Below, piece by piece: positions 4,387-53,378 of a stretch of DNA of 64,000 nucleotides. Under the pieces are notes generated by a model. It searched no databases. It was not told the DNA's origin and worked only from the letters and a program-made list of their open reading frames with translations. Each line of letters begins with the position of its first letter. Position 1 is the first letter of the stretch. A program made the position numbers and the translations under genes. The stretch is taken from positions 21,610,006-21,674,005 of the forward strand of contig NC_081378.1 in the NCBI RefSeq assembly GCF_030684315.1, in the 5' to 3' direction. The stretch comes from Stegostoma tigrinum (lineage: Eukaryota).

Positions 4387-4550
4387 TTGTCCAAATGTCT
4401 GAGATTGGCTGTGCTCCTGATCAATGCTAATCTGTTCCAGGCTGAATGCAATGCAGTAAATGGCATTCTGATGAACAGCAGCCAGAAGTAATGAATGAGT
4501 GAAATAATATTCCATTTGGCCAGCAAAATTCCAGATCATCAACTTTCCAT
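4387..4550 (-). pseudogene. Exon encoding the Roc (ROCO family) GTPase G3 region: GKLMIWNFAGQMEYYFTHSLLLAAVHQNAIYCIAFSL
   Basis: Flanked by ctgtgttcAG and GTatgg; 164 nt open. Matches the Roc signature WDFAGQxxYYxTHxxFL...aiYxxxFsL with D>N in the G3 box. Could be a functional exon rather than a pseudogene exon. Confidence 0.6.
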
Positions 4551-6157
4551 CTGAACACAGGAGTAATCTCAGATCAGCACGTTCCCACCTGGAAGTAGGA
4601 GTAGTACCGAATTAGCTTTCTCCCACTAACAGGAATGATCCAGATCACCTTCCTAGATCACGGCCTTTCACTAGTCTGACAGTGTTACCTATCCCAATGG
4701 AAGTTCAGTCCATCATGTCTCTGTCCTCTACCTTACTGCACAAGACTTTTTTTTCAAAAGTATGATGTGGGTACCTGTCTCAGTCACCCTGTCAGGCACC
4801 AAGTTCCAGACTGTCGCTCCCCCTTCCCCATCCCCACTGGATGAAGGAATTTCCCCTTTTAATTATACTTTTTATCCAGGCCTCCCGGTCAGTGACCTCT
4901 CTACCACAACAGATTGATACTTTATATCCACCCAATCTTGATGCTTTAAATTTTAGAAATGTCACATAAATCTCCCCTCAGCTTCCCTGTTTCAAAGAAA
5001 AAAAATCAGCCTACCTAATCCTTCTGTTAAAAATTGCCAATTCCTGGCAATGTCTTTATAAATTTACTCTAAGCCCTTTCCATCATGATCACAACTTTCC
5101 AGTGATTGGAACTGGAAGCAGTATGTAGCTCTGGTCTAAGTGTTCTGGACAGTTCTGGTGCAATCACCCTTCTACCTTAAAACTAATGAAGGAAAGCATT
5201 TACAAGTTTTCTACCCACTCGTCCAGTTAGAATCAGGGATCTGTAGACATTCACTTCAAGGCCAGTGTTTCTCTATGTGCTACATGTTCTGGTATTCAAT
5301 ACATATTGTCTGCTTTGCTCACCCTTTACAAATACCTCTCCAGATTGTGCTCCATTTGCCTGATTATAATCTTTCCAAATATAAAACAGAACAACCACTG
5401 GAAACTAATTAGATTTGTCAGCAAATGAGGAGGTTAGGATGTTTTTAAAAAATTGGGAAGGGCAGCAGGGGTGATGGTTGTGGTGTTGGTTAGACCAGAA
5501 ATATGGGCTACAAGTATAAGATACTCATTAACAAGGAAATAGGAAATTCAAGACTGATTTCTTTACTTAGACGATGGCAAAATTTGGAACTCACTACCAC
5601 AAGGAGTGGCTGAGACAAATAACAAAGGTGCATTTAAGAGGAAGCTAGGTAAGCACATAAGGGAGAAAGGAATAGAAGGAAATGAAGCTAAGATTAGATG
5701 GTTAGGCATGGGAAGAGTTTAAGCACTGGCACAGTGTTGGCCGAAATGATCTGTCTCTGTGATGTAGGCTCTACGCTACAAGGATTCTGAGTTCAAGTCC
5801 AAGAGCCTCGACAGCACCATACTCATTCTGCTGAGCAGCACCAGCACCACTCTAATCCCAGGGGAAATGATGAGCGAGACCAAAGGCTATTCTCTCACAT
5901 TAACCCTCCACTGGAGTGGGTGGGTGGGGTGTGGAATCCTAACTCTTCTAGGACCAAGTTTGAAAAGCTTATATTTTGAAGCATGAGAGATTTGCTAGTG
6001 TCAGAACCCCTATAGCAGGAATGGTGAAGCCTGGATTTTTCTAGCACCTTCCTGTGCTCAGGAGCTAGTAGTGAGAAGAACCCAAATGCATGCATTTTAA
6101 AATCTACCCTCAGAGTGTGGCAATCCTGGGATTGTGCAGCACAAATATATCTATACG

Positions 6158-6230
6158 GCCTGACTAGATCAGTCAGTAGAGCATGAGGCTCTTAATGTCA
6201 GAGTCCTGGGTTCGAGCCCCATATTGGTCA
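6158..6230 (+). tRNA. tRNA-Lys(CTT)-like sequence, probably a pseudogene
   Basis: 73 nt gcctgactagatcagtcagtagagcatgaggctCTTaatgtcagagtcctgggttcgagccccatattggtca is colinear with vertebrate tRNA-Lys-CTT. There are several stem mismatches (acceptor, D, anticodon); the T-loop GTTCGA is intact. Confidence 0.75.
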
Positions 6231-6241
6231 ACTGGCTCTTT

Positions 6242-6520
6242 AGGGTGGCATGGTGCCTTAATGGTTAGCAATGCTGCCCCACGGTATCGGAAACCTGGGT
6301 TCAGTTCCAACCCCAGGCAACTGTCTATGTAGAGTTTGAATGTATTGCATGCGTTCATCCTAGGTGCTCAGGCTTCCTCCCACAGTTCAAAAATGTGAAG
6401 ATTAGGCCGATTAAACATTGTAAATAAACATGGGGCTACAAGAATAGGGCTGGGACCAAGTGGGATGCTTCTTGAAGGCTCAATAGCTAGAACATCCCCT
6501 TCCATACTGTAGAGATTCTA
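6242..6520 (+). mobile_element. HE1/V-SINE-like tRNA-derived SINE
   Basis: tRNA-like head (tggttagcaatgctgcc...gggttc), V-domain-like ggtgctcaggcttcctcccacag, and a CR1-type tail. Confidence 0.7.
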
Positions 6521-6606
6521 CAGCGAAATGTGTCAGTCTCTGATTTTTTTTCTGAATGCACACCCTGCTGCCCTCAAACCTTCCCTGGACAGGTTAGCTG
6601 ATCAAC

Positions 6607-7050
6607 TGGATTGATTTATTGTCATGTGTACCAGCGTACAATGAAAAGCTTTGTTTATGAAGAATACAGGCAGATCACAGTATGCCAGGATGTACAGGTC
6701 AAAGGTTGGAAAAAAATCTTAGAGGCATACAGGTTACATTGCACAGGGCGTACAGTGGGTGAGATGAATGTTAGCAAGATCAGCGTTATTTGAGGCTTAG
6801 GAGTCCATTCATCAGTCAAATAACAACGTGGAAGAAGCTGTTCCTGAACCAGCTGGTGTGAGTGTTCAAGCTTCTGTATCTTCTTTCTGATTGAAAGGGT
6901 TGTAGGAGGTCATCACTGGTGTGTGATGGTGCTTTGATGATGCAGGCAACCTTTCAGCAACAAACTCTGTAAATGGAAGGTTGGCTTCTGTGATAGTCTG
7001 GGCTGTGCACACAGCTTTCTGTAGTTTCTACAGTCCTGAGCACAGCAGTT
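6607..7050 (-). mobile_element. Rex1/Babar LINE 3' end
   Basis: The minus strand gives RRYRSLNTHTSWFRNSFF, followed by the Rex1-type tail (aagcttttcattgtac...tgacaataaatcaa). Confidence 0.6.
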
Positions 7051-7054
7051 CAGA

Positions 7055-7980
7055 CAGCTCCGACGAACAGGTAAGTCAACATTTCAGGGGAGGGGGAAGG
7101 AGCCCATAAATAAATAGAGGGAGGGGGGTAGAGCTGGGGCAAGGGTAGGAGAGATGGTGAATAGTGGATGTAGATACAGGGTTATTGTGATTGTCCAATG
7201 GGAAGGATAGCTCAGACAGATGAGTTGGAAGATGGATGGGTTAAATCAGGTCGGGAGGGGGAGAACTGGACATGGGTTTAAGGGCTGGAGGTGGAGGGAT
7301 TTTGAAGCTGGTGAAGTCAATGTTAAGGCCATTGGGCTGTAAGCTTTCCAAGGCAAAATATCAGGCGTTGCTCCTCCAGTTTACATTTGGCCTCACTCTG
7401 ACAGTGGAGGAGCCAAGGATGGACATGTCGTCAGGGAAGTGGAAGGGGGTAATTAAAAATGGATGGCAACCGGGTCAGGTTGGTTGATGCGTGCACAAGT
7501 ACAGATGCTCTGCCAACTGGTCCCCTAGTCTGTGTGTGGTCTCCCTGATATACAGGAGACCCACAGCGGGAGCAATGGATACAACAGATAAGGTTCAATG
7601 AGTTGCAGGTGAATCTATGCCAGATCTGGAAGGATTGTTTGGGGCCTTGGACAAAGGTGAGAGGAGAGGTGTGGGGGCAGGTGTTGCACCTCTTGTGGAT
7701 TGGTAGGGAATATAGAGCTGACAAGGGATTCATGGAATGAATCGTCCCTGAGGAAAGCAGACAGGAGTGAGAAAGGAAATATCTTTTTGTAGGTGGCGGA
7801 AATATTGGAGGATGATTTGTGGGATTCAGAGATTGGTGGGGTGGTATGTGAGGACTAAGTGGGCTCTATTCTTATTGCTGTTGAGGGAGTGGCTTTGAGG
7901 GCAAAAGTGCTGGAAATGGAGGAGATGCGATTGAGGGCATCCTTAATTAGAGGAGGTGAAATTACGATTTTTGTAATAGA
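7055..7980 (-). mobile_element. Penelope-like element 3' fragment (GIY-YIG endonuclease region)
   Basis: RCNTCPHTS...RFTCNSLNLICCIHCSRCG on -; homologous to 41064-42400. Confidence 0.8.
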
Positions 7981-8033
7981 AGTTTCAGCAATGAGGGCTA
8001 TCCACCCATAGATCATGGGCTATAATGACATAC

Positions 8034-8145
8034 AGTTTGAAGTAAAGGAGTTGTTACAACCAGTAGCGCAGCACTCCCCATGCCAAATATTAGGATCGAG
8101 CTTTCACATTGACTTCTGGTTCTGGAAGTCGCTGCACATGTAGAC
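8034..8145 (-). pseudogene. Putative decayed P-loop exon of the same Roc-domain gene
   Basis: Flanked by tctttcAG and GTatgt. Reads LHVQRLPEPEVNVKAR, then after a 1-nt frameshift ILIFGMGSA-allvv-TTPLLQT, which resembles beta1-GxxxxGKTTLL with the GK lost. Confidence 0.35.
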
Positions 8146-8724
8146 CTGAAAGATTCAGAGGAACACTGGTTAAAGAGCACGCATGTGTATACACGTAAGG
8201 CAAACATTACATTTCTTTGAAGGGCAAAGTGAGAAAAATGGAAATATGGACGCTGCTGTCTTACAGAAAATGTATAAAGTGTCCTAATTTTCACAATTCA
8301 AAGGTTAAAAGTAGGACTATGTGGTGTCCCCTTATTAGTTACATAAGATCAGGAAACTTCTGGAGTAGATGGATTTGACACTTTGATGAGATAAGCCAGG
8401 TGCCTTTTGCCTGAATTGCTGCCTAGTGTTACACCTAAATGGGGTCGTGTGCTGGAGATCAAGACATCTTATTCCTGAAGGCATCACAAAAGTTGAAAAT
8501 TTTGTACAAGTATGAAAAATTCTTTTGTTTACCTGTCTTTTAAACCCAGTTAGACAAAAAAGCACAGATCAGGGTGTCTGTACTTTACAAGAATTACTAT
8601 TTATTGCAAAAAAAATTCTAGCTACAGACAGATGACACAGCTACAGATGAACCATCAACATAAACTCTGCCCGCCTTATAAAACTCCCTCTATGCACACA
8701 TACACAAAACAAACATGGGTATTC

Positions 8725-9062
8725 ATAGAATTCCTACAGTATAGAAACAGGTTATTCAGCCCGACAAGTCCACACCACCCCTCCAAATAGCATCCCACCC
8801 AAACCCATTCCCCTACACCTGTATTTCCCATGTCTAACCTAACCTAAACATCCCTGAACACTACAGGCAATTTAGCACAGCCAATCCATCTACCCTGCAC
8901 ATCTTTGGACCGTGGGAGGAAACTGGAGCACCTGGAGGAAACCCACGCAGACACGGGGAGAATGTGCAAACTCCACACAGACAGTCACCTAAAGCTGGAA
9001 TCAACCCAGGTCCCTCGCGGTGTGTGGCAGCAGTGCTAACCACTGAGCCACGATGCCACCCT
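8725..9062 (-). mobile_element. HE1/V-SINE-like SINE
   Basis: The minus strand reads ggtggcatcgtggctcagtggttagcactgctgcc...gtggagtttgcacattctccccgtgtctgcgtgggtttcctcc. Confidence 0.85.
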
Positions 9063-9303
9063 GAATGTTATCGGTGAAGGGAGAGATTAGAGAAGCAATT
9101 CAATAGCTTCCTGTTCTGTAATGTGATGCTTTTGGCTGGTCAGGACATGCTACTCTTCATCTTCCTTCTCCAGGTACTTCCACTTGCTGACAAGAGGTAC
9201 AGACTCATACATGTTAAGTCCCTGACTTATTAGACATAAGCCACAACCTAAAGCAATTGATGAGGGGAAATAAACTAGCTTTCTTCAGGCTTGAGGTCCT
9301 TCC

Positions 9304-9650
9304 TTTATTCATTTACAGAACGAGGATGTTGCTGGCTAGACAGCATTTATTGTCCACCCCTAATTGCTTGGAGGGCAGTTCAGAGACCACCACATTGCTG
9401 TGGGTCTGGAGCCACATGTAGGTCAGCCCAGGTAAGGGTGGCAGTTTCCTTCCCTGAAGGACATTTGTGAACAACGTGGGTTTTTCCTGACAATCAACTT
9501 ACAGTCATTATTAGATTCTTAATTCCAGATATTTTATTGAATTCAAATTCCACCACCTACCTTGGTGGGATTCAAACCTGGGTCCCCAGAATGTTAACCA
9601 TGTCTCTGGATTAACAGTCCAGCAACAATACCACTAGGCCATTGCCTCCT
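9304..9650 (-). mobile_element. tRNA-derived SINE (family B)
   Basis: Same family as 830-1160 and 39540-39810. Confidence 0.75.
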
Positions 9651-9889
9651 CTCCCTTCCCGTGTGTTTACTGCACAGAGAAACATAGCTCTTTCCTTTCC
9701 TGGGATTTCAAAGTTTTTCAGTCTCCTGGGTTTCAGTGTTGGAAAAACTTAAGATGGGCACTGGATTCAAATCATTCACTCTGTTTTCTCTCCACAGATA
9801 GAGCTGCTGAGTTTCTGTAACACTTTCTGTGTTTGTTTCAGATTTCCGCAGCTTCTCTGTAATCCCAGTGTTTATTATATCATTAAAGT

Positions 9890-10060
9890 GATATGTCCCT
9901 GCCGGTCTCTACGGTCGCCCACTCTCACCTTTCCCTTCCATCCGGGTCTCCGCCTCCGCACGCGCAATTGTAAAGCCTGCTGGGATCTGTAGTTCCCTAA
10001 AGCAACGGCCGGCGAGGTACCAGGAAATGGCGGCGGAGGGGCGCGTGCGGGCTGGGGGAA
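9890..10060. promoter_or_regulatory. CpG-rich promoter of SCO2, probably bidirectional, with a ZNF143/THAP11-type motif and an NRF1-like site
   Basis: Local CpG cluster. tgctgggatctgtagttc (9978-9995) is the reverse complement of ACTACAnnTCCCAGCA; cgcacgcgca lies at 9957-9966. Splice donors point outward on both strands (9928 on -, 10017 on +). Confidence 0.65.
9929..9941 (-). other. Putative first coding micro-exon (ATG GAA GGG AAA G) of the divergent Roc-like gene
   Basis: Strong donor AAG|GTGAGA at 9928-9927 inside a CpG-rich promoter. Phase 1 joins the 8145 exon in frame (MEGKGLHVQ...). Confidence 0.35.
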
Positions 10061-10374
10061 GGGTTAGGTGGGGCGAGGAAGAGAAGGGTCAGATGCTGGA
10101 TTGATCTAGAGAGGTCGGGGGATGCAGGGTGCGGGGAGAGGAGGAATGTGGGGACAAGAGGGCGATGGAGATGCTGGGGGAACAGGCGTGGTTTCAGTAT
10201 CAGAGGGGCCCTCAACCTGCCACCCAGACAGGGCAGGGACTGCTGGGAGGTGAACCAGGCCGGATTGTGGGTGTTCTTTTTCTCAGGTTTGTGTGGGGTC
10301 GGGTAGGGGGAGAGGGGCACTGGTGTGTTTTGATTGACCTCTAAGCATTTTTCTTTCACCACAGGTTTACCACG

Positions 10375-11574
10375 ATGATCACGAGGGGCCACAATTCATG
10401 CTGGCAACGACTGCTGGTCAGTGGCAGCTTGTCGAAGTCAGGGAGTGAGGATGTGAGCAGAAGAGGTGCTGTGGCCCTGAGACATGCCAGCTGCCTGAGT
10501 AATGGACACTCAGGGGTGAAAACTTTCAGGATCACAGGAAGCAGGGGATGGCATTTGCAACCTGTATCTACAACCATTGATTGCAACCAAAAGTTAAACC
10601 ATAGGAGCATTAATGGGTTGTATTGTTTCTACACCAATGTAATGGGATTGAGCACTGAAACCGTAGCTATTCCATCATCTGAAATCAGTGCAACTGATCC
10701 AAACTATCCATTGGGAAGTGTGCAAGGCACTCCTCACTTAACAATCTGTAACACATCAAGTCAGTCCATGAGAGAGAAGCTACACTTCCAAACTGAGGGA
10801 AGACTATTGGCAGCCCACAGTTTGCTTGGCCTTTCCTCTCTGCCACTTGTGCATGTTAACCCTGGCTGTTCAACTTTCCTGACCCACAGACTATTTTCAC
10901 AGTCTGCCTCAGACAGGAGCTCAGGGAGCCCTCAGATCAGCTTGCGGTCCAAATTCCTGGTGACATGCCTTTTTGGCTGTGCAATAATGGGATTATGGTA
11001 CTATGTTCACTTGGAAAAGAAGCAGCAGGAAAAGGTGAAACGCCAGGAGCAGCTTCAGAAGTTAGCACTAGGTCAAGGTGATTTCACTTTGCTGGATCAC
11101 ACTGGAAAATCTAGAACCAAAAAGGACTTCTTAGGCAAGTGGGTTCTGCTTTACTTTGGATTCACCCATTGCCCTGACATCTGCCCAGATGAGCTGGACA
11201 AGATCTCAAGTGTGGTGCAGATTTTAGACATGGATAGGGCACTGCCTCCAGTCCAACCCATCTTTATCACAGTGGATCCAGACAGAGACGGAGTGGAGGA
11301 GATGGCGAGGTATATCAAGGATTTCCATTCTCGTATGATAGGATTGACTGGGACACCAGAGCAGATCAAGGATTTGGGGAAGGCATTCCGAGTATACTAC
11401 AGTGCTGGCCCCAAGGATGAAGATAATGACTACATTGTCGATCACACAATCATCATTTACCTTCTAAATCCAGATGGGCTTTTCACCGATTACTACAATC
11501 GGAGCAAAAATGACCAGGAAATTGCTGAGAGTATACGCAGCCACATGAAAAACTATGTCAATTTCTTCAGTTGA
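10375..11574 (+). CDS. SCO2: Cytochrome c oxidase assembly copper chaperone SCO2 (399 aa, single coding exon)
   Basis: TM helix FLVTCLFGCAIMGLWYY; thioredoxin-like domain with YFGFTHCPDICPDEL (CxxxC), FITVDPDRD, GLTGT and YIVDHTI (Cu-ligand His). The CDS is intronless, with acceptor ttttctttcaccacAG at 10363-10364, 10 nt before the ATG. It lies tail-to-tail with NCAPH2 as in human, which favours SCO2 over the multi-exon SCO1. Confidence 0.95.
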   Translation: MITRGHNSCWQRLLVSGSLSKSGSEDVSRRGAVALRHASCLSNGHSGVKTFRITGSRGWHLQPVSTTIDCNQKLNHRSINGLYCFYTNVMGLSTETVAIPSSEISATDPNYPLGSVQGTPHLTICNTSSQSMREKLHFQTEGRLLAAHSLLGLSSLPLVHVNPGCSTFLTHRLFSQSASDRSSGSPQISLRSKFLVTCLFGCAIMGLWYYVHLEKKQQEKVKRQEQLQKLALGQGDFTLLDHTGKSRTKKDFLGKWVLLYFGFTHCPDICPDELDKISSVVQILDMDRALPPVQPIFITVDPDRDGVEEMARYIKDFHSRMIGLTGTPEQIKDLGKAFRVYYSAGPKDEDNDYIVDHTIIIYLLNPDGLFTDYYNRSKNDQEIAESIRSHMKNYVNFFS

Positions 11575-17441: not shown

Positions 17442-17582
17442 TCATTTATTTGAAATGGATGGAGCCATGTATGTCCGGAAACGTTCGTGAGCTCTTACTT
17501 TGCTCAAAAGGGTCAGTTCCATTGTGTCGACTGATTCATACAGCCCTTCTTTTTGCCATATGTCCACTGTGTAGTCATTGGC
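17442..17582 (-). CDS. NCAPH2: NCAPH2 coding exon 20 ([46 protein letters not shown])
   Basis: ctttgcAG acceptor; TGA at 17444-17442; 141 nt. Confidence 0.95.
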
Positions 17583-18527
17583 CTGCAAAGGAGAGGAAAC
17601 AGATCTCACCATGAGCAGCTGAGGGATAGTTAATATTCACAGCACTGGAGCTAAACTTGGCATTACCGTAACAGGCATTCAGAGTCCACACTGAAGTAAA
17701 TCTCGTTAGCCCACTCTCTGTACAGAGGCACCCCTGAACATCCAGAAGTTAACACAAGGATGGGGTAAAAACAATGGGTAAATGAGAGGAAAAAAGTAAA
17801 TCCAAAGGAACTGAAGGAAACAAAATCTCAGCGATGGCATACCCAGGAACCTTATGTATCCATCCCAAAGCATCAATTATATAATTGTTCATTGTCACAA
17901 AGTCAAGTAAAACCCATTTGAGACATCTTAAGTTTAAAGTTCTCATCCTCCAACAATACATCACTTCTTCAGTGTGATTCCTCCATGAGTGCAACCACCC
18001 CATGTACCACTCCTCTAATACTGCAGCACCTGTTCAGTGCTGCTTCTCCAACAATGTAGCACTCTCACAGTACTGCCTCTCCAAAGATGCTGCACCCTTT
18101 CAGCAACAACTTAGCTGGTGTTTGACAGCCCTCAGCTCAGGGCTTGAATCTTCAGTCTTCTAACTCAGAGGCAGGAATGCTGTCATTGAGCCAAGCTGGC
18201 ACTGAGACTACCCATTAATGAAATCCATCAGGGAAAAAAGTGCTAGTGTGCAGTAACAACATATCAGGTCATTCATTCATTCATACTATCCACCTGAAAT
18301 ATCTCTATTTTGAACCATTGTTGAGTCGCAACATATTTCTTAGGCTTTGTTCACCGAATTGCTTTCAACTGCATCCCCACATCATATCTGCCTAGTTTAT
18401 AGCAAAGTTCTGTTCTCACTTTCTTTGCACTCACCTTCCTTTCAGTCACCACATGTTGCTATGGTGGTGGGTGCATGAAGCTCCTGATTCTTATCTAATC
18501 TCAATTCACAGTGAAGAACATGCTTAC

Positions 18528-18677
18528 CAGTTGCAGCGTGGCCAGCATATATCTGCACACTTCGAATGCCTCCTTTCCAGCCACAATGCTTGCAAATGAA
18601 CGCCTCTGTCTGATGCAGTCAAACGCATCCATAATTCTGATTCCATAATCATGGATGTCAAAGGCAGCTCGTTCATC
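18528..18677 (-). CDS. NCAPH2: NCAPH2 coding exon 19 ([12 protein letters not shown]...[13 protein letters not shown])
   Basis: AG/GTAAG flanks; 150 nt; C-terminal kleisin domain. Confidence 0.95.
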
Positions 18678-19530
18678 CTACAGGAGATCAGAAACATTGC
18701 AAATAGTCAGAATGTGATAAGGAGGGACTTATAGAATAGAGCCATTAAAACTACCCTCTATGTCCCAATCTTTTCAAAAGATCTATGTAGTTTAAACCCA
18801 TCCTCTGCAAATTACTCAATTTGATTTTGACCATTGCTGTTGAATTTGCTTGCACCACCACTTAGGTCATGCATGCCAAGTTGCGATAATTTGTTGCATG
18901 AAACCTGCCATCTGACTTCTTGACAATTGTCTTTTCTGTTTTATGCTTATATAGAACATATAGTACAGAGAAGGTATTCAAACTAAAATGTTAATGGTGG
19001 CATTTATACTTTTTACTGTAAATCCCTCCCATCCTTCCTTACCCAGCACATTTTGCATGATCCTCCAATTCCTTCCATCTCTACACTTATATACATCCTG
19101 AAGTGTATCTGTACTCTTCACCTTAACTACTCCTTGTAGCAGCAAGTTCCATTTCTCAACCACTCTGGTGAAAGAATTGTTTCTGAATTCCCTATTTGAT
19201 TTTTCTCAATCACCACCTTATGGTGATGTAGTTTTGCTCTTCCTGAAAAAGGAAACATTTTCTCGTGTTTATCTGATAAAACCTTTACAATTTTAAAGGA
19301 TTCTGTTAAGTTAGCCCTCAGCCATTTACTTTCGAGAGAAAAGAGTCCAGTTGTTCAAACCACAACGAAGCTATTGTTGGTGAACTAGCTTTGTTGCAAT
19401 GGTAACAATGTAGGAAATCCAGCAACAACTGGGGCATCCCAACAGGGAGTGACGGCTGCTCCCAAATGGTGCGAACAGCTAAGCTGTGCACGGAGGATTC
19501 AATGCAGTATCCCAGCAAAATCAGCCACAC

Positions 19531-19888
19531 ATTGTAGAATCCCTACAGTGTGGAAGCAGGACATTCAGCCCATTGATTCCACATCAACTCTCCGAACAGC
19601 ATCCCACCAGACCCATTCCCCCACTAACCTTATTCCTTGAAATTCTGCATTTCCCACGACTAATCCATCTAGCCTGCATATTTCCGGACACTATGGCAAT
19701 TTAGCACAGCAGTCCATATAACCTGCACATCTTTGGCTGTGGGAGGAAACCACAGCACCCAGAAGAAACCCCATGCAGACACAGGGAGAACATGCAAACT
19801 CCACACAGATAGTCACCCAAGGGTGGAATCGAACTCAGGTCCTTGGTGCTGTGAGGCAGCAGTGCTAACCACTGAATCACCATGCCAT
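19531..19888 (-). mobile_element. HE1/V-SINE-like SINE
   Basis: Same family as 8725-9062. Confidence 0.85.
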
Positions 19889-21793
19889 TTTTTAAAAAAA
19901 AATATTTCGAGAAATTTGTGCAGCCTCAGGCAAGGTCACTGATGGTTGATCACCTTAAATGCCTTTGAGAAGCTGGTAATAAGCCACATTCCTGAACTGA
20001 TGTAGTCCACGTACTGTTTGTTCACCTGAAGTGCAATTAGGGAGTTACAACTAAAAATGATAAATGGTGACATTTTAATTTACGTTAGTAGCTAAACGAA
20101 GCCTATATAAGTCTGCATGGGCCGAACAAAGTGGTGATAAGACCGCATGGATAACAGAATGGATCGAAACCTTAATCAACGAGATTCTTGAATGGAAGAC
20201 CAGGCTCCAGCACTAAATGGCCTCTTCTTGCATTTAATTCTAGTTTTTGTGATTTTGGAGCAAGTATGCACTTTCCCTAATATAATTGGGAAGATGTCCA
20301 TGAAAGGACAACTACCTGGGCACAGAAACACCATTTCCCCTTTCTCAGCTATGGAATTTTTACAGCCTCCCCAAGCTCCAAATGGAAGGGTTGGGAAATA
20401 GAAGAAATTGTTTAACTACACAGCCTGAAGATTGTTGCAGCAACTCAGTAGCTGCCAGATGAAGGAATAAAAGTGGACTTCAGGTTTGCAAGTTGAAAAA
20501 CAACAAGTTAGAGTTAGGAAGGATTACAGAAATTGAAATTGCAACAATTGAGGGCTAGGGTGGAATAAAATACAACAAGAATTGTCCACCAGATGGATAT
20601 GGTGAAAAGCATAACCAAAGAATCTTTTAAATCCATACTGATAATATGGTACACCATAGTTTACAGCATGTGTGCACAGACAAAATAAATAGTCATAATT
20701 ACTAAGTTAGACTAACTACGTGCGTTTTTGTAAATTCTGTATTAATTGAATATAAACTTCAAAGTGATCCAACATAAAGCCAACAAAAAAAAGATTTACT
20801 GTTGTCTCATGATAATGCCCTTCTCAATTATTATTCACTTCTGCCTAGACATTGCCTAACTCTTACTACCTCCTCTTGGTTTATACCTTAACAGTAGATG
20901 CAATAGTGAATTCTCCTTTATTGCATGCTTGCATACCAGGTTAGAAAGGAGTCCGGAACTCATTGTAGGAACTCTATTCCACTTTACTCATCACTTCTGG
21001 CCAAATTAATTCAGGGTAATGGAACTTCTCCATTTTTCAAAATTCATTTCCTTAATTTGTTTTCATCCTTCTTCCTTTGGTTTATTTTCACTTTTGGATG
21101 GTTTGTAGATTTCCTGAATAAAGTGTTCGATGCTTTTACATCTATTTATGTGAATTCTATTCTGTCTGACTCATGGCTACACCACACTTTGGTACTGCCA
21201 TAGTTATTTCTAACAAAGACAGCTATTTCACGCTCCATTTCCGTTCGTTCCAAATTGCCCCCTCTGGAAGTTTAAGTCTCAGTTTGATTTTTATGAAGCC
21301 ATTTCTCAGTAATTCCTATTATATCTGGTTCCTCATTGTCTCCAGCTTTCCTATTTTATCATGGACATTGCGTATTGTAGAGATAGTTACATTCATTTTT
21401 AATAGCAGTTACTTTCCACTTTATTTATATTATTTGTTCCACAACTCCCTTATCATTTATGGCCTTTCGTTTAATATGCCTTATTACCTCCTTTATTGCT
21501 TCTGTTGCATTGAAGATCATTTCATTTCCTAGGAGGTACATACACCCTTCCAGTATTATTAATTACTGACCCTTCAGCCAGCCCTTCAAAGAACAGCCAC
21601 CATACAAAAGAGAGTTTCAGCAAAGGAAAATCTAAAATAAAACCTGAAAATGCTGGAATGACACTGTCAGTAGGAGACTGAAGTAAGATCATAATTTTCA
21701 GCCTAATTTGTTAAAATGCTAAGTAATCTGCCATAATCACCACACCCCCAAGAATATTGCTTGCCACATTAGGCTCAATGAAATCACTCGTAC

Positions 21794-21895
21794 CTGTTCT
21801 TCAAGTCTTGGGCCAATTTTCTCCTCCCAGTCCCTCACACGAAGGGATAGGGCTGTTTCCTTGGCATACTGCTGGGAGTTAGCGATGAACAGCTC
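21794..21895 (-). CDS. NCAPH2: NCAPH2 coding exon 18 ([34 protein letters not shown])
   Basis: AG/GT flanks; 102 nt. Confidence 0.95.
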
Positions 21896-22674
21896 CTGGA
21901 ACACAAGAATGTGTCAATCTAGAACAGCTCAGTCCAACAATGCACTAGGAATTGCCAAGAATTCAGGATCAGAGATGAACACAAGTCTCAGGTGCATTGT
22001 GAGACTCACTTCTTACATGTACAGGATGTATGTAAATTAGAACAGTAAAAACAGCCTGTACTCCAGCTTACATAGTGTTCATCACAGCCAGGGCATTGTA
22101 AGGAGTATATCACCCTTTTATTCCCTACAACATTGTCCTTTCCTTTCATATTAAAATGAACAGTATATACCTCAACAACACTACTCTTGTATATTTAAAT
22201 AAGGGGGTTATTACCCTCTCCTCCACCACCTTCTCAGGAAAACTAAATTATCATATTTAAATGCCAGCCTTATCACTGATGCTCTCATCCAAAGAATGAA
22301 TTATGAAATCTTTGGATACTGGATACTGGATCTACTGTGAGCCTACTAAATCACAGGAGGCAGCAATTGGGCCCATCGTGTCTGCACCTGCGAGTATGTC
22401 AATCTGCTGCCTTTTCCATATCGCTGCACACTATTTACATTGAAATAATTAATGCCTCAATACCTGAATACCTCAATGAAACCCACCTTTACTGAACTTC
22501 TAGACAGGTCATTTCATACCCTAACTAATAATCAAATAACCTGGTCCTCCAAACATGTGTACTGATTTCAACTGGAGCAGAGATTTTAATTATAACTGAA
22601 TGTTAAAACATTTTCCACATGGTTACTGAATAATGGAGGCTAAAACATATTTCGTTTTCAGGAATTTTACATAC

Positions 22675-22730
22675 CACATTCCTTCTGACAAGTTCCTCAT
22701 AACACGCTGATCCCATTTCTCCAAAAGGTT
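22675..22730 (-). CDS. NCAPH2: NCAPH2 coding exon 17 (PFGEMGSACYEELVRRNV)
   Basis: AG/GT flanks; 56 nt; YEELVRRNV motif. Confidence 0.92.
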
Positions 22731-22891
22731 CTGCAATTACAGATGGTAACTTAATTACTGACAGAAAACAACAGCTGGAAATTGTTGCTGTCTTACAGGA
22801 GTGTTTACCCAGTGTTACACAGAGGAGAGTGGAGTGTTAAACTTGTGTTACAGGGACAAGTTTTATCCATATTTAGAGGAAGGGATATTAC

Positions 22892-22960
22892 CCAGATTTG
22901 GGGGGCTGTGGTTGTCCTGAGCTGCATCAGCTTCTTGATCCAAATTAATGTCGTAATCAT
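22892..22960 (-). CDS. NCAPH2: NCAPH2 coding exon 16 (DYDINLDQEADAAQDNHSPPNL)
   Basis: Poly-T cAG/GTAAT flanks; 69 nt; phase 1-1. Confidence 0.8.
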
Positions 22961-23544
22961 CTGAAAAAAAAAACACAGATTGAAATGTTGCAGCTTTCCA
23001 ACTGCTCACAATATTTTGGTTAATAATGCTAAATTAATATGTCAAACAGCAGGCAAACTCAACTTTCATGCACAATTGGTTCATGACCCAAGCTCACCGC
23101 TGGATCTCACAGACTCATTGCTGATCCCTGACTGCCCTTGAGAAAGGTAGAATGAGCTATCTTTTTCAACCACTGCAGTCCATCTGGTGTAGGTACCTCC
23201 ACAATGCTATAAGGAAGAGTTGTGTGAGAGGAGAGATTGATCAGATCATTTCTACCTGTCCATCTTTGCTCTATATTGCCAGGACAAATGGCCTGTGACC
23301 AAGCACATGAACATTGTTCACTTTTTCCACTCTCCCGTGCCCAAAGGTAATCTGCCTAAACCGCAGCATCCCAAATAATATGACAAGACACCAGAGATTC
23401 TTCCTGGATTATGATGAAGCAGAATCTCGATATTTCAGTGATAGAAACCATTGCTGAATTACTTGGATCTGGATGTGAGAATAGCTTCTCCACGCCATAT
23501 CTAAAAGGAATTCTGTGAACAATTTGGTGCCATTATCTAAGAGG

Positions 23545-24140
23545 AAGGCATACTGACAATGGAGGCATTGAAGGTTCACTAGGTTGTTCCCAGATATTTT
23601 ACGAGAAGATGTTAAGTAGATTGGGCCTGTACTCAGTGGAACTCAGATGAACAAGAGACAATCATATTGAAAGATGCACAATTCTTTGGGAGCTTGACAG
23701 GGTAGATGTGTAAAGGTTGTCTCCAACATTCCCCTCTAAGCTGCACTGTGCATACTCACAGCCAATCCAATGTTCCGCATGTGGTGAGCAGCATGCCAAT
23801 GCTCTAACTTCTGTTGGTGGTTGTCTCCCCTTGTGGCAATGTCTACGACCAGTGGACATAACCTCAGAGTAAGGGTCACGATTTAAGACAAAATGCGGAA
23901 GAATTTCTTCTTTCAAAAAGGTAGTGAATTTATGGAATTCCTTACCACAGAGAGCTCTTAAGTCTAGATCACTAAGTACATTCAAGGCTAAGAAAGAGTT
24001 TTTCTCAGTAAGGGAATTGAGTCTTATAGAGAAGAGTCAGGAAAGTTGACTTGAGGATTATCAGATCATCCATGATCTCATTGAATGGAAGAGCAGAATC
24101 AATGGGTTGAATGGCCTACTTCTGCTCTCATGTTTTATGG
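23545..24140 (+). mobile_element. Degraded CR1 LINE 3' end
   Basis: gggcctgtactcagtggaactcaga...gaatttcttctttcaaaaggtagtgaatttatggaattcc...aatggcctacttctgctc. Confidence 0.7.
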
Positions 24141-25487
24141 TTTTCTAGAAAGTGTCTTGTCTGTTTCAAATTTTGGGTACTGATCACTTAGTTGTCAGAG
24201 ATGCTACAGTACATGTTGTGGCCAATTATAGCATTAATTCATTAAAGTTTAACATTTCTCATTTCTTTTTTGTACCATCCGTAATTAAAGAAGAATTCCA
24301 TTAATTCTAAATCAGGGCACCACCTCCTACTAACCAACAGTGATTGGAGAGTGTTTGCAATCTTTCTTCCTACATGGCAATTAATTTGTATTTGAAATTC
24401 TAGAAAGTCACAGATTTCAATCCAACTTCTGGCAGATTATTGAAGTTCTGTTTCAGCCGCCTTTTTGAGGCACATTGTGGGAGGAAACTAATCCCACCTC
24501 CTACACAAATAAATTATACAAATAAGACAAATGGTGAATATCTAAATATGAAACAATTGCTCTGAAACTATACGAGTGGGCTGTGTGTCACTCTATAGAA
24601 TATTAAAATGTAATTGTGCAATCAGATGATTATCTGCACAGTAAACAGGCTGAACAGGTCCAGCAGATATTGCTCTGGGCACCACCCCACTGATCCCAGT
24701 CATGCTTTCCCTTCACACATACACTGCTGATTTTGATTTCATTCTCTCTCTCTCTATTATAAACGCCCATTACAGCAGCATGCACACAGATCTCTCTCAA
24801 GTAATAAAGGAACAATGCTGAGGGCTAGATGGCCAACTTGTGATTCTATTTGCACTAAGCACAGAAATCAATTAATTTCAGAAATGTTCTCAGTGACAGC
24901 ATTCTCTGAATATTTATGTTTATGGCAGAGTCCCGTTGTGAAAGGTAGCAGATGCAGCACATTTGATATCTTCATATCACACCCCACCCTTAAAACATAC
25001 CCTTACAGAGTAGTGTGTATAACTCTTCAAGCACAATAAGCACTGAGATCAGGGTATATTATCCCTGTAACCCAGATAACAATCACCTCATGTCTGTACA
25101 GAAGAATATTAATCCTTTTTGTGTTGAATACTTATGTAAATTCTACTGAGAGGTAACATGATTGCTTCCAGGATTCTAAAGGATCACAAATTATTTGACC
25201 ATAACAGTAGAGGACCTGGCCTGAGCTAGACTGGGTGACTTCCAAACTAATCTGTGGAAATAATATTTCAGGAACAAACTGGTTAATACATAGCACAGGC
25301 TCTCTTGGAAGATGATGAATGCAGGTAATACCGATCATTGAAATTCAAAATTATATTTCGGGCATAACATTGCGTGGTACAATACAAGTGATTTCAGTTA
25401 CATAAATGGTTACTCAAATTTGGGGGTAACAAGAGACTTCTGATCGACGATTCCCATAACTGTTTGGCACCAGGTGATTTCTCACTC

Positions 25488-25689
25488 GGTAGAGCCAAAA
25501 AAAAACCTGTAGATGCTGGAATCCAGATAGATAAACAGGAGGCTGGAAGAGCACAGCAAGCCAGGCAGCATCTAGAGGAAAGGAGCAGTCAGCGTTTGGA
25601 GTTTTACCCTTCTTCAGGACTGGACCCAGAACATTGACTGCTCCTTTCCTCCAGATGCTGCCTGGCTTGCTGTGTTCTTCAGCCTCTGG
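25488..25689. mobile_element. Mini palindromic Penelope-derived element
   Basis: TSD tttctcactc at 25478-25487 and 25690-25699; ~52-bp inverted arms at 25539-25591 and 25635-25686. Confidence 0.75.
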
Positions 25690-26715
25690 TTTCTCACTCA
25701 TGCCTGTGTTTGTCGTGGATGTGTGTTGATTAGCATGATTAGTCAACAACTCCATTATTGTCAAATCCTGCAAATATTAGGTTATTAAATCAACTACATA
25801 GACATTTTCACCTAGAAATTCTGATATTCACATCTACATCCTGATCTTTTATACCCTGCAAATCAGGACGTGACAATTGACACAGGGGAATGCGATACTG
25901 AAATTTGGTCATTTCAGCAAATTGGAATAATGTTAAATAAACAAAGGGCACAGCTAGTGTCATGGGCCAGGTGATGTAATTTCATGAAACATTCATGAAA
26001 GCAGCAAAAATTCTTAAATAATGAGACTTCAAAGCAAAGTAAAGGGGCCTCAACTAAAGCAAGAAAATGCTGTTAAATCTATACATCTTGTTGAGGCCAC
26101 AGTTAAAGTTCTGGCACTTCATTATCAGGAGAATGTAAAAGCAATGAGAAATATGCAAACTAAATTATGTGCTGAATAGACAGATGCTACAATGAAATTG
26201 ACTAGCACAGGTCAAAATATTAAAAGGAAAGCCAGGTAAGCGCAGGGTAATATAGGATATGCTGTTGGTGTTAGATGGAGAAGGATGGGAGGAGGCACAT
26301 TTAAGTCATAAACACCTGTGCAGATATATTGTGCTAAAATGTCCGTTTCTGTGCTGTATATATTAAGCAGTAGGCTCATAATGCCTTAGAAGAGGTGCTA
26401 CGTAATTTAGAGTCGAGTTAAGGCTCTCCTCACTAGTGTTGAGAAAGTAAACAGAGGTCATTAAGATTGCAATGCAGGCCTATAGAAGATAATAATGTGA
26501 GAGATCAAATGAAAAATAGTTTCAGGAACAGCAGAACACCGCTGTAGATCACAAATCCAAGCAAACAGAACTGTAAGAAAAAGAATCCAACACCAGAATA
26601 TACAAATGGCCTACATAAGGGAAGTAGTCCCTGCAATTGTTTCAGTACAGAAACTATTTCTACATTTGCAACATAACTTAGGTCAGAATGGGAGAAATCC
26701 CTTCTCTTTCATTAC

Positions 26716-26833
26716 CTTCCAGTCCGTCATTATCCAGATGGTCTTCAGCTCGCTCTTGCAAGTCATTTAATTCTTCTTCCATGTTTCCTGCTTCTACATC
26801 TAACTCCTCTATTACCCTCCCACGTAGAGCAAT
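26716..26833 (-). CDS. NCAPH2: NCAPH2 coding exon 15 (IALRGRVIEELDVEAGNMEEELNDLQERAEDHLDNDGLE)
   Basis: AG/GT flanks; 118 nt; phase 0-1; acidic. Confidence 0.82.
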
Positions 26834-27784
26834 CTGCAGAGGAAAGACTTGATTAGCATAATCATATACACAAACAGCAGGAGTTCTGACACAAACCAGA
26901 ACACATCAACGAACACAGCACCTGAATCACACTCCATTTTCATCAGCTTCCTTTCAGATAGGTGACTCAAGGGTGAGCTTAAACTCTGCCACATGTTACA
27001 GCACCTTCATACTGTATGCCCACCCTGTAATGACATACACCTTCAACACATATTGCACAAGCACACCAACATAAGAGCATGCTCACCCACACACCAATAC
27101 CCTCAGTCAACGCTAAACACAAGCACACAAAATTGGATCTGTCATCTCTTCCACAATACAGCAAGAATTAATTATTCTGTATGACGCACTTAAAACAGAA
27201 TTTTATTACAGCACAAGAGGTCATTCTCAGAAAGCTACTCTGAGCTCTCAACGGGCATTTTCCACTTTTATTCCATAGCTTTCTCTTCCAATCCCATTTC
27301 AATTCCCCATTAAACGGATGTAATTGTATACACATACACTAATTTTGTCCTTGAAAGGTCCTTACGGCAAATCATTCGTCATAATAATGTGAAAACCTAA
27401 CTTCCTCCTTCCTTCTCCTTGTAGCATCTTTAATTTGTACCCCTAGTTACAGATTCATAGATCTGAGGATGATGGTGTTTCACAACGTACCATTACCAGA
27501 AGTGTTCATTAGATATTGAACAAGAGCAGAAACCTTGGTGACTTTTCACCTTCTCAAAGTTCTGTCAGACTGGAGTGCCCTGACTGCCATCTGAAAACAA
27601 ACACTTTAACACAGACCTAGCTAAGTGGTTCAATCCCGTCCTGATCCAGTCAAAACTCCTGCTATTAATATTTAACAACTGGTATAAATGCATTTTTTGG
27701 AATAAAATGTACCAAAACACTTAGAGTTTTCCACTATCCACTGGCATTTCTCTCCCTAACAAATGTTTCTCACCAAACACTTAC

Positions 27785-27855
27785 CATCATTTGCTGATGT
27801 TTCCTCTGTGCTCGGAGTCTGTCTTTCATATGTTGCCAGTACAGAACATCCATAT
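27785..27855 (-). CDS. NCAPH2: NCAPH2 coding exon 14 (MDVLYWQHMKDRLRAQRKHQQMM)
   Basis: AG/GTAAGT flanks; 71 nt. Confidence 0.92.
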
Positions 27856-29599
27856 CTGCGAAGGAAAGAGATCATTTTAAAATTAGCAAAAACAAAAGCT
27901 CAAAGTTCCACGCCCTCAGGAAAGTTATTAACTTGATGAGCACCATCAGCCACCCCAATTATAGATAAGTCTTTGCACAATGGTGTCCATTTGTCTGTCG
28001 TGTGAGATCAATGGGAAGCTGAGGAATGGATACTCTGCCAGAGTTGCAAGCGGGAACACTAGGACGAGTCAGACACAGTTCCAAACCAGTCCAGGGTCTC
28101 CCAGCAAAGCACGAACAAATCTTAGGCTGACTCCCCCAGCCCAGACTTGCAGTCTAGGCCGAGGATCCTTGTCTGCAGCTAGGCGTGGCCACCTGAAGGA
28201 GGAGGAAGGCAGACTCAACTCAGCATGGCGGTTGTCCTGTGTGGAGGTCTTCTTCTTCTTTGGCGTCCAGGTATTCAGGGACCCAGCAGGCAGTCTCGTC
28301 CTGGCTTCATCATCATGGTATACCATCGCTCCTTAACCTGTTTTCCCCGAGCCCAGGGGCTGTTAAATGAATCGCGGTGAACTTTGTCTTTACTTTACTT
28401 TTTAGAAGTTATTATATATGTTTTCTGGCATTGAAACAGATGCTGTGGTGGGGCAGCTTGTAAAACTTTTCACTATATTTCTCATGTAAAAGTACATGTA
28501 AATTCCTAGTCTATTATTGCAGGTGAATCAGTTAAGTATATAGGTCTTTTAAATTGTCACGTGCAGCCACATATGTGTGGTATCTGAAAAGCAGACCACT
28601 TGTGCACAGACACTTTCAGGTTACTGAACATTCTACAGGGAGTACTGCCTTGGGCACCTGCACCTTGCAAAGTATCATCCAAAGTGCCTCCCTTTCCTCT
28701 CCAACAAGCTTGAACACTTTATCATCTACAATATTGGACCATTTCTTCCCATAATTCTATCAATGAACCTTTCAATCTGTTTTACATACACATGCCACAG
28801 CAGGAAACAGCCCTTATTGAAATCATAAATGACAAGCTGTGCGACAATGGTAAATTATCCTTCTCGATTTTGCTTATTCACGTGGGTGATCACACCATCC
28901 TCTTGTACCATCCACCAGCTTGTTGAGGACAAACAATGGCATACTGATTTTGTTGCTGGACTAGAAATCCAGAAGAACAGGAAATATTGTGGGGGCCCGA
29001 GTTCAAAATCCACCAGGACAAATGGTGGAACCTGAGTGTAAAAAAAGAAAATGTAGAATTGAAGGTATAATTATGACCACGAAACCATTGTTAAGTATCA
29101 TAAGATTCCATCTGGTTCATTCATCCTTTCAGGAAAGAAATCTACTATCCTTACCTGATTTGGCATACATGCAGTTCCAGACCCTCTAAAGCAACTCTGT
29201 TCTATCAAACTGCCAAAATATCTCAGGAAAAAAGCATGAAACTGTACAGACAACCTGGCATCAGCCAAGGCACTGAAAACGACAATGGTATCACAGCCAA
29301 CATGACTGGGCTAGTAATCCAGAACCCAAAGATTTAACTCATTGGTGACTAAGAAACCGTAAAATCTGTAATTGAAAGTCTAATGATGACCATGAAGCCA
29401 TTGTTGATTGTCATCTAGTTCATTAATGCTCTTTAGGGAAAGACATCTGCCATACTTGCCCAGTCTGGCCTACGTGTGACTCCAGATCCATAACAATGTA
29501 AAGTGACTTTAAACTGCCCCCTGGGCAAACAGGAATGGTCAATAAATTCTGGCCTACCCAGCAATGCCCAAACCTCTTGAACAAAAATATAAAGAAATC

Positions 29600-31795
29600 C
29601 TAAGAGACATTGCTGATAGAACTGGGTCTGCAGCAGCTAGTGATGAAACCAATAAGAGGTGAAAACTTATTTAGTCTCGTTCTCACAAATCTTCCTGCAT
29701 CAGATGTGTTTGTTCATGACAGCAGTGGTAGGAATGACCACCACACAGTCCTTGTGGAAACAAAGCCTTGTTCTTTATATTGAGCATATCCTTCATCATG
29801 GATTGTGACATTACTACATTGCTAAATTGATAGAACAGCTGAAGACAGGGCATCAACAAGGAGTTGTGGGCCATCGTAATCAACAGCAGAACCATACTCC
29901 AACACAATCTGCAATTCCATGGCCTAGCACTTTACCACTAATATCAAGCCAGGGGACTAATCCTGGGTCATAGAAGTGTGCAGGACAATATACAGGAACC
30001 GCATCAGGCATACCTAAAACTGAGGTGTCAACCAGATGAATCACTGGGCAAGAAGGCTCTACAAATATTTCCATCCTCAATTATAGGGAACTTCAACAAA
30101 TCAAGCTAAAGATAACACTGAAGTAGTTTACAACAATCTTCAGCCAGAAGTGCCAAGTGGATAACCCATCACATCAAAGATGGCAGCCTTCAGTCAATTC
30201 AATTCACTCCGCATGATATCAAGAAACAGATGAAAATGCTTGTACGGAAAAGGCTATGGGCCCTGACAATACTCTGGCAATAGCAACTGGAGATGTGTAC
30301 TTTGAACGTGCTGCACCCCAAGCCAAGCCGCTCCAGAACAGATACAACGTTGGTATTCTCCTGACAGTGTGGGAAATTGCCCAGGTATGCCCTGTACAAA
30401 AAAGACAGGACAAATCTAAAATCAGTTCTTGGTAGTGTGGATGTGCAGAGGGATCTTGGTGTCCATGTACATAGATCCCTGAAAGTTGCCACCCAGGTTG
30501 ATAGTGCTGTTAAGGCGGCTTATGGTGTGTTAGGTTTTATTGGTAGAGGGAATGAGTTCCGGAGCCGTGATGTCATGCTGCAACTGTACAAAACGCTGGT
30601 GCGGCCTCACTTGGAATACTGCATGCAGTTCTGGTCATCCCATTATAGGAAGGATGTGGAAGCAATGAAAAAGGTGCACAGGAGATTTACCAGGATGTTG
30701 CCTGGTCTGGAGCGAAGGCCTTATGAAGAAAGCCTGAGGGACTTGGATCTGCTCTCATTAGAGAGAAGGCAGCTGAGAGGGGATTTAATAGAGACATACT
30801 AGATGGTTAGAGGATTAGGTAGGGTGGGCAGTGAGAGTCTTTTTCCGAGGATGATGACGTCAGCTTGTACGAGGGGGCATGGCTACAAATTGAGGGGTGA
30901 TAGATTTAAGACAGATGTCAGTTGCAGGTTCTTTACTCAAAGAGTGGTAAGGGCGTGAAACGCCCTGTCTGCCAATGTAGTTAACTCAGCCACATTAGGG
31001 GCATTTAAACAGTCCTTGGATAAGCAGATGGATGATGCTGGGATAGTGTAGGGGGATGGGCTTAGATTAGTTCACAGGTCGGCGCAACATCAAGGGCCGA
31101 AGGGCCTGTTCTGCGCTGTATTGTTCTATGTTCTAATTTTCTCTTGATTATCAATAATGTGATGGAAAAGACATCAACTGTGTTATCAAGAGGTACTTAG
31201 TCAGCAATAACCTAAGTGATGTTCGACTTGGATTCTGCCAGCGCCGTTCAGCTTCTGTTCCCATTAATGCCTTAATTCAAAGATGGACAAAAGCGCTGAA
31301 CTCGGTGGTGATGAGAGGATGACTGCCCTTTACATTGACGCTGTAACTGACGGCGTGTGGCACCTTGGAGCCCAAGTAAAACAAGAATCAATGGTAATCA
31401 GTGGAATAAAAACAACGTATACAAACATTCACTCTCTCCACCATTGATGTTCAGTATGTGCCATTTATAAGGTGCACTACAGAAATTCATCAAGGGTCCT
31501 TAAGCAGCACCATCTCAGCATCTACCATCGAGAAGACCAATGGCAGTAGATATGTGGAAATGCCACCGTTTTCAAGTTTCCCTCCCCGCCACTCTCTATT
31601 CTGAGTTTAGAAATGGATTACCATTCCTTCAGTGTCACCAGGTCAAAAGCCTGGAACTCCTCCCCAACAGCATTTGTGGGTCTACCTACAGTAAATGAAC
31701 AAAGCAGTTCAAGACGACAGTTCACAGCCATTTTCTCAAGGTAGCTAGGAATGGGCGATGAAGGCTGGCCCAGCCAGCGATGCTCACATCCCAAA
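29600..31795 (+). mobile_element. Degraded CR1/L2-group LINE carrying a nested younger CR1
   Basis: KAMGPDNTLA and WEIAQVCPVQK..DKS motifs before 30420, resuming as LLIINNVME after 31140; 3' tail at 31740-31795. Confidence 0.65.
30422..31135 (+). mobile_element. CR1 LINE 3' fragment (nested insertion)
   Basis: QRDLGVHVHRSLK...LYKTLVRPHLEYCMQFWS...RGDLIETY; tail gggccgaagggcctgttctgcgctgtattgttctatgttcta. Confidence 0.9.
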
Positions 31796-32436
31796 AATTA
31801 AAAATATTTTTTCAAGAACATGCACATACCTGCTTCCACTTTCAGCCATCCAATCAAAGCTAGAGAGTCACATGCAATGGCTCATCTTCCCACTCTCACA
31901 ATTACATTCAAAATCTCCAACGATCTATACTTGTCCCTCTCATATTTATTATCTTATCCATTCCCCAGTGACACAATTTAAAAATATATTCTGAGGGTCC
32001 TCACATAGCCAACAACAATCAACTGTACCTCACAACCACCTCTCCCAACCCTCCAATGTCACTGATTTGGCACACTGCTCATCCTATAACAAAATCACAA
32101 TCTGCAGAAATTTTCTTCATTATTATCTCTAGCTCCCACCCCAAAAAAAAATTATCTAGCTCCTAATTTTATGCTCTTGCTTGGTCAGTGTCTCATAACC
32201 AGATAATTGTATCCCATGGAAGTACACATCATTGGTGGTTGCTGAAGGATTGGGTAACTGAAAAGACAATGGTTGCCTCAGTGAAAGAGTAGGGCTCCGT
32301 CAAGATATGGCCAGTAAGCTTTCTAAAAGCAACTCACTCCAGCTCTTATGTTCCCTAAAGTCTGAGGAAATATGCTAAATTTACCCACTGATGCACAAAT
32401 CAAAGCTGATCCCAGACACCCAGCTCTGCCTCTCAC

Positions 32437-32490
32437 CTGCAAATGTTGGGCCTCTTTTCCGACTCTTTGCCTCACTCCATCCACCATAAT
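32437..32490 (-). CDS. NCAPH2: NCAPH2 coding exon 13 (YGGWSEAKSRKRGPTFA)
   Basis: AG/GTGAG flanks; 54 nt; RxGPxFAD motif. Confidence 0.9.
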
Positions 32491-32734
32491 CTGGAAGGAA
32501 GAGAAAAGCAAATATAAGAGATTGAAAAAGATGGAATGTGCAGAGAAGACTATAAAGTATAATTACTGTAGCAATGAATTTCACAATACATAGCACACCT
32601 AGTGTAAAGTACACAGTACAATGATTCACCTGGGACTGGTGACCAGAGCGTCACAGCAACGTTAGTGTCACCCACAGCACAAAACTGTATAGATTCGGTA
32701 AACACAAGGAGGAAAATGTTCAATGACTACTTAC

Positions 32735-53369: not shown

Positions 53370-53378
53370 ATCCTTTAC

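Follow-up and report, generated by a model that had tools for sequence, protein, structure and literature searches.

A Roc-domain exon beside SCO2 in the shark Stegostoma tigrinum: probable relic of a fifth vertebrate ROCO gene

An exon on the minus strand of Stegostoma tigrinum DNA (4550..4387 of the window, the whole stretch of 64,000 nt from contig NC_081378.1 that was analyzed) is, by sequence comparison, the switch II (G3) exon of a fifth vertebrate ROCO gene adjoining SCO2. The shark copy of this gene is probably a decaying relic, because its ankyrin, P-loop and switch I exons are undetectable and the aspartate of its G3 box is an asparagine. Family records were already public under other names; apparently new is their recognition as a fifth vertebrate ROCO, and the shark copy is probably not functional.

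The exon is 164 nt long, is flanked by a pyrimidine-rich AG on its 5' side and GT on its 3' side, is entered in phase 1 and left in phase 0, and reads through 54 codons without a stop, confirming what an earlier note on this DNA had described; to the peptide of 39 residues given there, the full reading adds 15 more. The splice sites are canonical yet weak (acceptor 3.0 and donor 1.7 bits with rough matrices). The assignment to a Roc domain, made in the same note, was borne out by comparison with longer proteins, in which 5.8 billion sequences were searched and six of eight candidates were vertebrate matches (sturgeons, paddlefish, bichir and newt; 57-63% identity to these Roc-bearing proteins, E 1.5e-12 to 2.5e-9). 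An HMM of the orthologues found the exon in the window with E 7e-25, the runner-up site having E 1.7. Because of this homology a chance match is excluded. In Pfam, Roc was indeed the top match of the exon peptide alone, but with E 0.095 and 13.4 bits it stayed under the cut-off of 27; the best PDB match was the Roc domain of LRRK2 (E 0.12). No second copy of the exon was found within the window, and an origin from a repeat or transposable element was rejected on this single-copy state.

The shark exon is 54-63% identical to eight core orthologues, which are 57-85% identical to each other. At the 21 columns invariant in these eight it departs once, compared to 0-3 departures in intact orthologues. 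The departure is the codon AAT (Asn) at 4528..4530 on the minus strand, which turns the G3 motif DxxG into NxxG; all 18 aligned Roc-bearing orthologue records carry Asp. The substitution had been read correctly before, but Asp at this position is not shared by every ROCO, contrary to what had been assumed: DAPK1-type records carry Glu and one distant record carries Asn. Conservation in ROCO proteins is highest at G3, according to one review (PMC6337361).

The family consists of ankyrin-Roc-COR-death-domain proteins of ~940 aa without a kinase, and its members come from sturgeons, paddlefish, gar, bowfin, bichirs, coelacanth, lungfish and amphibians (newts, salamanders, caecilians and frogs, including Xenopus). 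They are stored in protein databases under misleading names (DAPK1-like, TORNADO1-like, pats1-like or uncharacterized), so that 'unannotated', the word used in the earlier note, fits the shark exon but not the gene family, and some 'DAPK1-like' annotations in fish and amphibians refer to another gene. Ank, Roc and Death models were found on paddlefish, sturgeon, gar and lungfish records, and Pfam Roc scored over its cut-off in paddlefish, sturgeon, bichir, newt, lungfish and gar. No kinase model was found on the 10 family records scanned for it, and no LRR model on the family records scanned. In 18 Roc-bearing records the motifs GxxxxGK[ST], WDFAGQ and G[ST][HF]xD were present in every one, and a G2-type motif in 16.

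Pfam COR-A and COR-B remained under cut-off on the family (E 1e-4 to 2e-5). The family profile aligned to LRRK2 residues 1321-1679, its Roc-COR part, with E 5.6e-13, and to LRRK1 with E 0.004. An AlphaFold2 model of the gar protein had a mean pLDDT of 85, and its first structural matches were LRRK1, LRRK2 and the Chlorobium tepidum RocCOR (3dpu, TM 0.68 by target) at 13-19% identity. From the profile alignment and the predicted structure, intact orthologues carry COR directly after Roc. The segment that corresponds to the shark exon (residues 342-395) comprises strand beta3, helix 2, strand beta4 and the start of helix 3 in the gar model. A prediction of a two-copy Roc-COR complex, for which the alignment was not used, scored 0.00 and counts neither for nor against such a complex.

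A search with the paddlefish Roc-COR-death domain region gave 26 matches among 8000 scored candidates, of which 23 came from non-teleost bony fish (sturgeons, paddlefish, gar, bowfin, bichir and lungfish) and from amphibians (salamanders, caecilians and frogs); one of the 23 clusters with ranid frogs. Beyond these, one hemichordate at 26% identity and two distant records were matched. This search overlooked true members (coelacanth and Xenopus). A profile search of 1.84 billion representatives, which shows one record per 50% cluster, yielded 13 matches of at least 446 bits, followed by a drop to 311 bits. Nine of its 145 new hits were clear members, and eight further hits had a weak best match to the family (22-33% identity). 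This search added the coelacanth, one shark (Heterodontus francisci) and frogs, among them Xenopus tropicalis (LOC101732277). No teleost or amniote (mammal, reptile or bird) record of the family was found in either search, both of which can miss members. The absence of mammalian records agrees with the earlier suggestion of a ROCO lineage lost in mammals.

Several records of the family are irregular. The frog orthologues (P0013-P0023, P0181) have about one ankyrin repeat fewer, inserts before Roc and in COR, and a long tree branch. In Rhinatrema (P0012) a stretch at the G3 exon, residues 14-30, looks out of frame, the current coelacanth model (P0182) starts at the G3 exon, and the Bombina gene is split into two records, P0219 and P0185. 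Judging from the records that look damaged or mis-modelled at the G3 exon, decay of the gene may be under way in several lineages.

Reviews count four ROCO proteins in vertebrates (PMC6337361). In a tree of 27 rows, nine vertebrate family records, horn shark included, formed their own clade (100/100), and vertebrate and invertebrate DAPK1 joined as one clade apart from the family (100/99). A forced union of the family with vertebrate DAPK1 was rejected (p-AU 6e-8; AU test, LG+G4, 27 rows), and a quick tree of 44 rows agreed. Both trees were computed under LG+G4 without a mixture model, with 40 and 23 of 67 rows dropped, respectively, and contained neither LRRK1/2 or MFHAS1 rows nor the 54-aa window exon. 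In the tree, the DAPK1 label derives from P0265, which has the kinase-ankyrin-death architecture and is nearly identical to P0252; a kinase model was present on the DAPK1 records P0265, P0296 and P0311. On the family profile, DAPK1 scored 106-114 bits compared to 446-1114 bits for members, and LRRK2 and LRRK1 reached 51 and 19 bits.

DAPK1 (ROCO group 3) resembles the family in having ankyrins, Roc, COR and a C-terminal death domain in common order and no LRR, as far as group 3 is described in PMC6320773. In contrast to DAPK1, the family has no kinase or calmodulin-regulated N-terminal part, has a canonical DxxG at G3 where DAPK1 records have Glu, forms a separate clade, adjoins SCO2 and has no amniote or teleost record among those found. 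The database name 'DAPK1-like' and the domain order of the C-terminal part of DAPK1 would fit a diverged DAPK1 duplicate of vertebrates from which the kinase was lost; given the grouping of vertebrate with invertebrate DAPK1, the rejected union and the gap in profile scores, such an origin is hardly credible, and the same holds for the exon as part of a repeat, against which its lack of a further copy in the window speaks.

LRRK2 and LRRK1 (ROCO group 2) share the Roc-COR tandem and are the best solved relatives by sequence and fold, but they have 2000-2500 residues compared to ~940, and the family has no LRR, kinase or WD40 and possesses a death domain. MFHAS1/MASL1 (ROCO group 1) is likewise a kinase-free ROCO with Roc as its only catalytic part, according to the account of this group in PMC6320773. 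As an LRR-Roc-COR protein it differs from the family, in which ankyrins and a death domain are present and no LRR model matched the records scanned; this separation is made by domain architecture, not by tree. Thus the earlier statement that the exon belongs to none of the four mammalian ROCOs holds for LRRK1, LRRK2, DAPK1 and the LRR-type ROCOs such as MFHAS1. Taken on the sequences, the family is a ROCO distinct from the four listed vertebrate ROCOs. In the passages of the reviews that list vertebrate or human ROCOs (PMC6337361, PMC6320773, PMC4104024), these fall into three groups, none with a kinase-free ankyrin-Roc-COR-death architecture, and the fifth vertebrate ROCO therefore lies outside that scheme. 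No published description of the family was found in a literature search outside subscription journals and supplements.

The best-scoring non-vertebrate relatives (176-311 bits) are kinase-free invertebrate ankyrin-Roc-COR proteins with death-fold tails, which share the N-terminal ankyrins and Roc-COR, whereas their identity to the family is ~26% and their tails vary. They include hemichordate proteins (P0024, P0189) and further relatives (P0196, P0197, P0199, P0205) that carry CARD, death or caspase domains; similar clusters occur in arthropods, molluscs and sponges. P0197, P0199 and P0205 are of the invertebrate ankyrin-Roc-COR type and end in CARD, or in death and CARD domains and the start of a caspase domain. 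Invertebrate ROC-bearing immune and caspase proteins are noted in the literature, where they stand as untested (PMC9334734, PMC11463336).

SCO2 lies 5.8 kb from the G3 exon in head-to-head orientation. Its coding sequence (10375..11574, plus strand; 399 aa) is contained in one exon with an acceptor at 10365, matches SCO1-SenC with E 3e-48, and is 82% identical to that of Hemiscyllium, 67-74% to those of other sharks and 60-62% to those of rays. The exon also encodes a long N-terminal extension; SCO2 has 390-450 aa in most shark and ray records (329 in one) compared to ~245-350 aa in most of the bony-vertebrate records listed. NCAPH2 follows tail-to-tail with SCO2, with exons at 17499..53913 on the minus strand, the strand of the Roc exon. 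Four of its 13 candidate exons match a CNDH2 model, CNDH2_N at 53812-53913 and CNDH2_C at 21794-21895, 18528-18677 and 17499-17582.

The accession number or locus tag of the family gene was next to that of SCO2, or no more than four numbers away, in nine of 13 species for which both records were available (Acipenser oxyrinchus, A. sinensis, Lepisosteus, Atractosteus, Polypterus, Amia, Protopterus, Pleurodeles and Pelobates cultripes), which bears on the question of synteny with SCO2 raised in the earlier note. Accession order is a proxy for synteny, and the comparison covers neighborhood rather than gene orientation. In sterlet, reedfish and Pelobates fuscus the family and SCO2 chromosomes are equal in size and the numbers are not adjacent; the paddlefish SCO2 record is on a different chromosome from the family gene, and in coelacanth and horn shark both records are on equal-sized contigs. 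The conserved address beside SCO2 bears on the idea that the exon is a stray duplicate of a complete gene located left of the window or elsewhere. Such a duplicate would explain why a single exon of the gene lies within the window, and the region to the left is unseen, but the exon occupies the family's own position beside SCO2, and a full-length chondrichthyan record was not found; this explanation is very unlikely.

The first coding exon and the ankyrin, P-loop (G1) and switch I (G2) exons would be expected in the interval 4551..9928 on the minus strand, in which none was detectable. Neither tblastn nor the family HMM revealed other exons of the gene anywhere in the window, and tblastn for remnants of the first exon gave noise only. 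Since the full-length HMM was blind to first-exon and G2 tiles (two of nine upstream coelacanth tiles were missed), segment-level HMMs were built for the first exon, seven ankyrin segments, G1 and G2. The best hit of these ten HMMs had E of at least 3.1 on the minus strand between 4551 and 10100, and E 0.15 or worse over the whole window. In controls, 38 of 40 held-out segments scored E <=1e-5 and the horn shark first exon E 3e-6, the latter being the only control for upstream segments that is shark sequence. A location of the missing exons farther upstream would be a simple alternative, but NCAPH2 occupies that strand and bars it. With only 5.4 kb available, of which 30% or more (at least 1587 of 5378 bases) consists of repeats that recur in other parts of the window, and NCAPH2 on the same strand beyond, the 5' half of the shark gene was most likely deleted. 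On the other side, G4/G5 and COR exons were not found in 1-4386; gaps of 4-6.5 kb are common between candidate NCAPH2 exons here.

An assembly gap, a local misassembly or a rearrangement could produce the same picture while the gene is whole in the animal, the D>N change then being a sequence error or a tolerated change. DAPK1-type ROCOs do tolerate Glu at this site. However, the window contains no N, SCO2 and NCAPH2 stand in the expected order, and neither protein search returned a full-length orthologue from sharks or rays. Four sequencing runs from two samples of the same organism contained all 28 words sampled along the exon, which weighs little since the runs are from one study, possibly the source of the assembly (a fraction of 0.29 of the sampled words was present in a second organism). 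An assembly problem is improbable.

The only chondrichthyan protein record found is that of the horn shark (P0188). It lacks ankyrins and Roc, continues from the first exon directly with COR and breaks off near the start of the death domain. Its COR region departs at 10-14% of invariant columns compared to 3-13% in intact orthologues, which amounts to no clear excess. The gaps in this model may be annotation errors.

At the promoter side of SCO2, a CpG island (9900..10099; CpG o/e 0.85 and GC 64%, compared to 0.27 and 42% in the window) is likely a bidirectional promoter common to SCO2 and a minus-strand transcript. It contains one ACTACANNTCCCA site of the THAP11/ZNF143 type on the minus strand (9981-9993; 0.05 matches expected; motif interpreted from the part of PMC3627581 that deals with it). 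Minus-strand transcription would start with a candidate first exon at 9929..9995, whose 5' end is approximate; it has an ATG at 9941-9939 and a strong GT donor after 9929 (6.4 bits) in phase 1, which is compatible with the G3 exon, as would be the case one time in three by chance.

These elements could belong to a working gene truncated at its 5' end, in which in-frame splicing of the promoter-side first exon to the G3 exon would produce a scaffold of half-Roc, COR and death domain that carries no nucleotide, the D>N change being tolerated as the P-loop is gone. Besides the CpG island, the THAP11/ZNF143-type site and the phase-1 donor, it would account for a G3 exon that is open and conserved except for the GTP-site Asp, for the several family database models that begin at this exon (P0012, P0023, P0027, P0182) and for the open COR exons of the horn shark model. 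However, the phase match has the chance level given above, and models that begin at the G3 exon may represent incomplete annotation; for A. sinensis and coelacanth, longer models exist as well. The missing part contains strand beta1, the P-loop helix and beta2 of the G domain in the gar model. In the Ras fold, beta1 sits inside the sheet. A G domain without these elements is, from this model and the established fold, unlikely to fold. In addition, no shark or ray protein of 96-2000 aa with the G3 exon was found, though the collection searched includes SCO2 from at least 10 sharks and rays, and the horn shark model lacks the exon and has lost most of the death domain. A working truncated gene is thus unlikely. 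A version of it in which carpet sharks kept a rebuilt ROCO, with ankyrins and P-loop deleted and the SCO2-promoter first exon driving a nucleotide-free COR-death-domain protein, a natural GTPase-dead ROCO, is likewise doubtful, and slightly more so.

For the preferred reading, a decaying relic that would have lost its function, the D>N change is specific to the shark copy and, together with the missing upstream exons, favors decay over a working pseudo-GTPase, the two options offered in the earlier note. Against a relic stand the phase-compatible candidate first exon at the shared promoter and the little decay of the exon itself, with its open frame, its canonical splice sites and the change at one of 21 invariant columns. 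In a rough model an unconstrained exon would stay intact in 62, 30 and 9% of cases at 0.02, 0.05 and 0.1 substitutions per site, which indicates that the loss was fairly recent or the decay slow.

The intact protein may be a GTP-switched death-domain scaffold with the ankyrins as input, a proposal to which we give even chances. It is drawn from the domain anatomy, from the behavior of other ROCOs as covered in reviews (PMC6337361, PMC6320773, PMC4104024) and from invertebrate relatives with death-fold or caspase tails (PMC9334734, PMC11463336). The ankyrin repeats would bind a partner and Roc would bind and hydrolyze GTP; by analogy to other ROCOs, the nucleotide state could shift the COR-mediated balance between monomer and dimer. 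This shift would cluster or release the C-terminal death domain, which might then recruit death-domain adaptors in cell-death or innate-immune signaling.

Jawed vertebrates probably began with five ROCOs, the fifth being a kinase-free GTP-switched death-domain scaffold that teleosts and amniotes lost independently. With the shark copy the family reaches into cartilaginous fish, and this copy points to repeated loss. The gene is open to immediate experiment, as it has records in Xenopus tropicalis (LOC101732277), newts and gar. With a canonical Roc-COR and a death domain and no kinase, it offers a small vertebrate model in which the Roc-COR nucleotide cycle can be studied by itself, of relevance to the Parkinson's protein LRRK2 and to DAPK1.

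Some other features of the window were observed. Inside the NCAPH2 span, at 41064-44790, lies a reverse-transcriptase element (RVT_1, E 5e-5) with inverted parts whose arms are 91-98% complementary; presumably it is Penelope-like, and older copies are present at ~7250-7930 and 34800-37000. A second CpG-rich block (58000-59200), with o/e above 1 and AT-rich, is probably the NCAPH2 promoter. Rfam and ARAGORN gave no match in the window; by eye, a tRNA-like sequence is visible at 6150-6230 on the plus strand, which is probably the head of a SINE.
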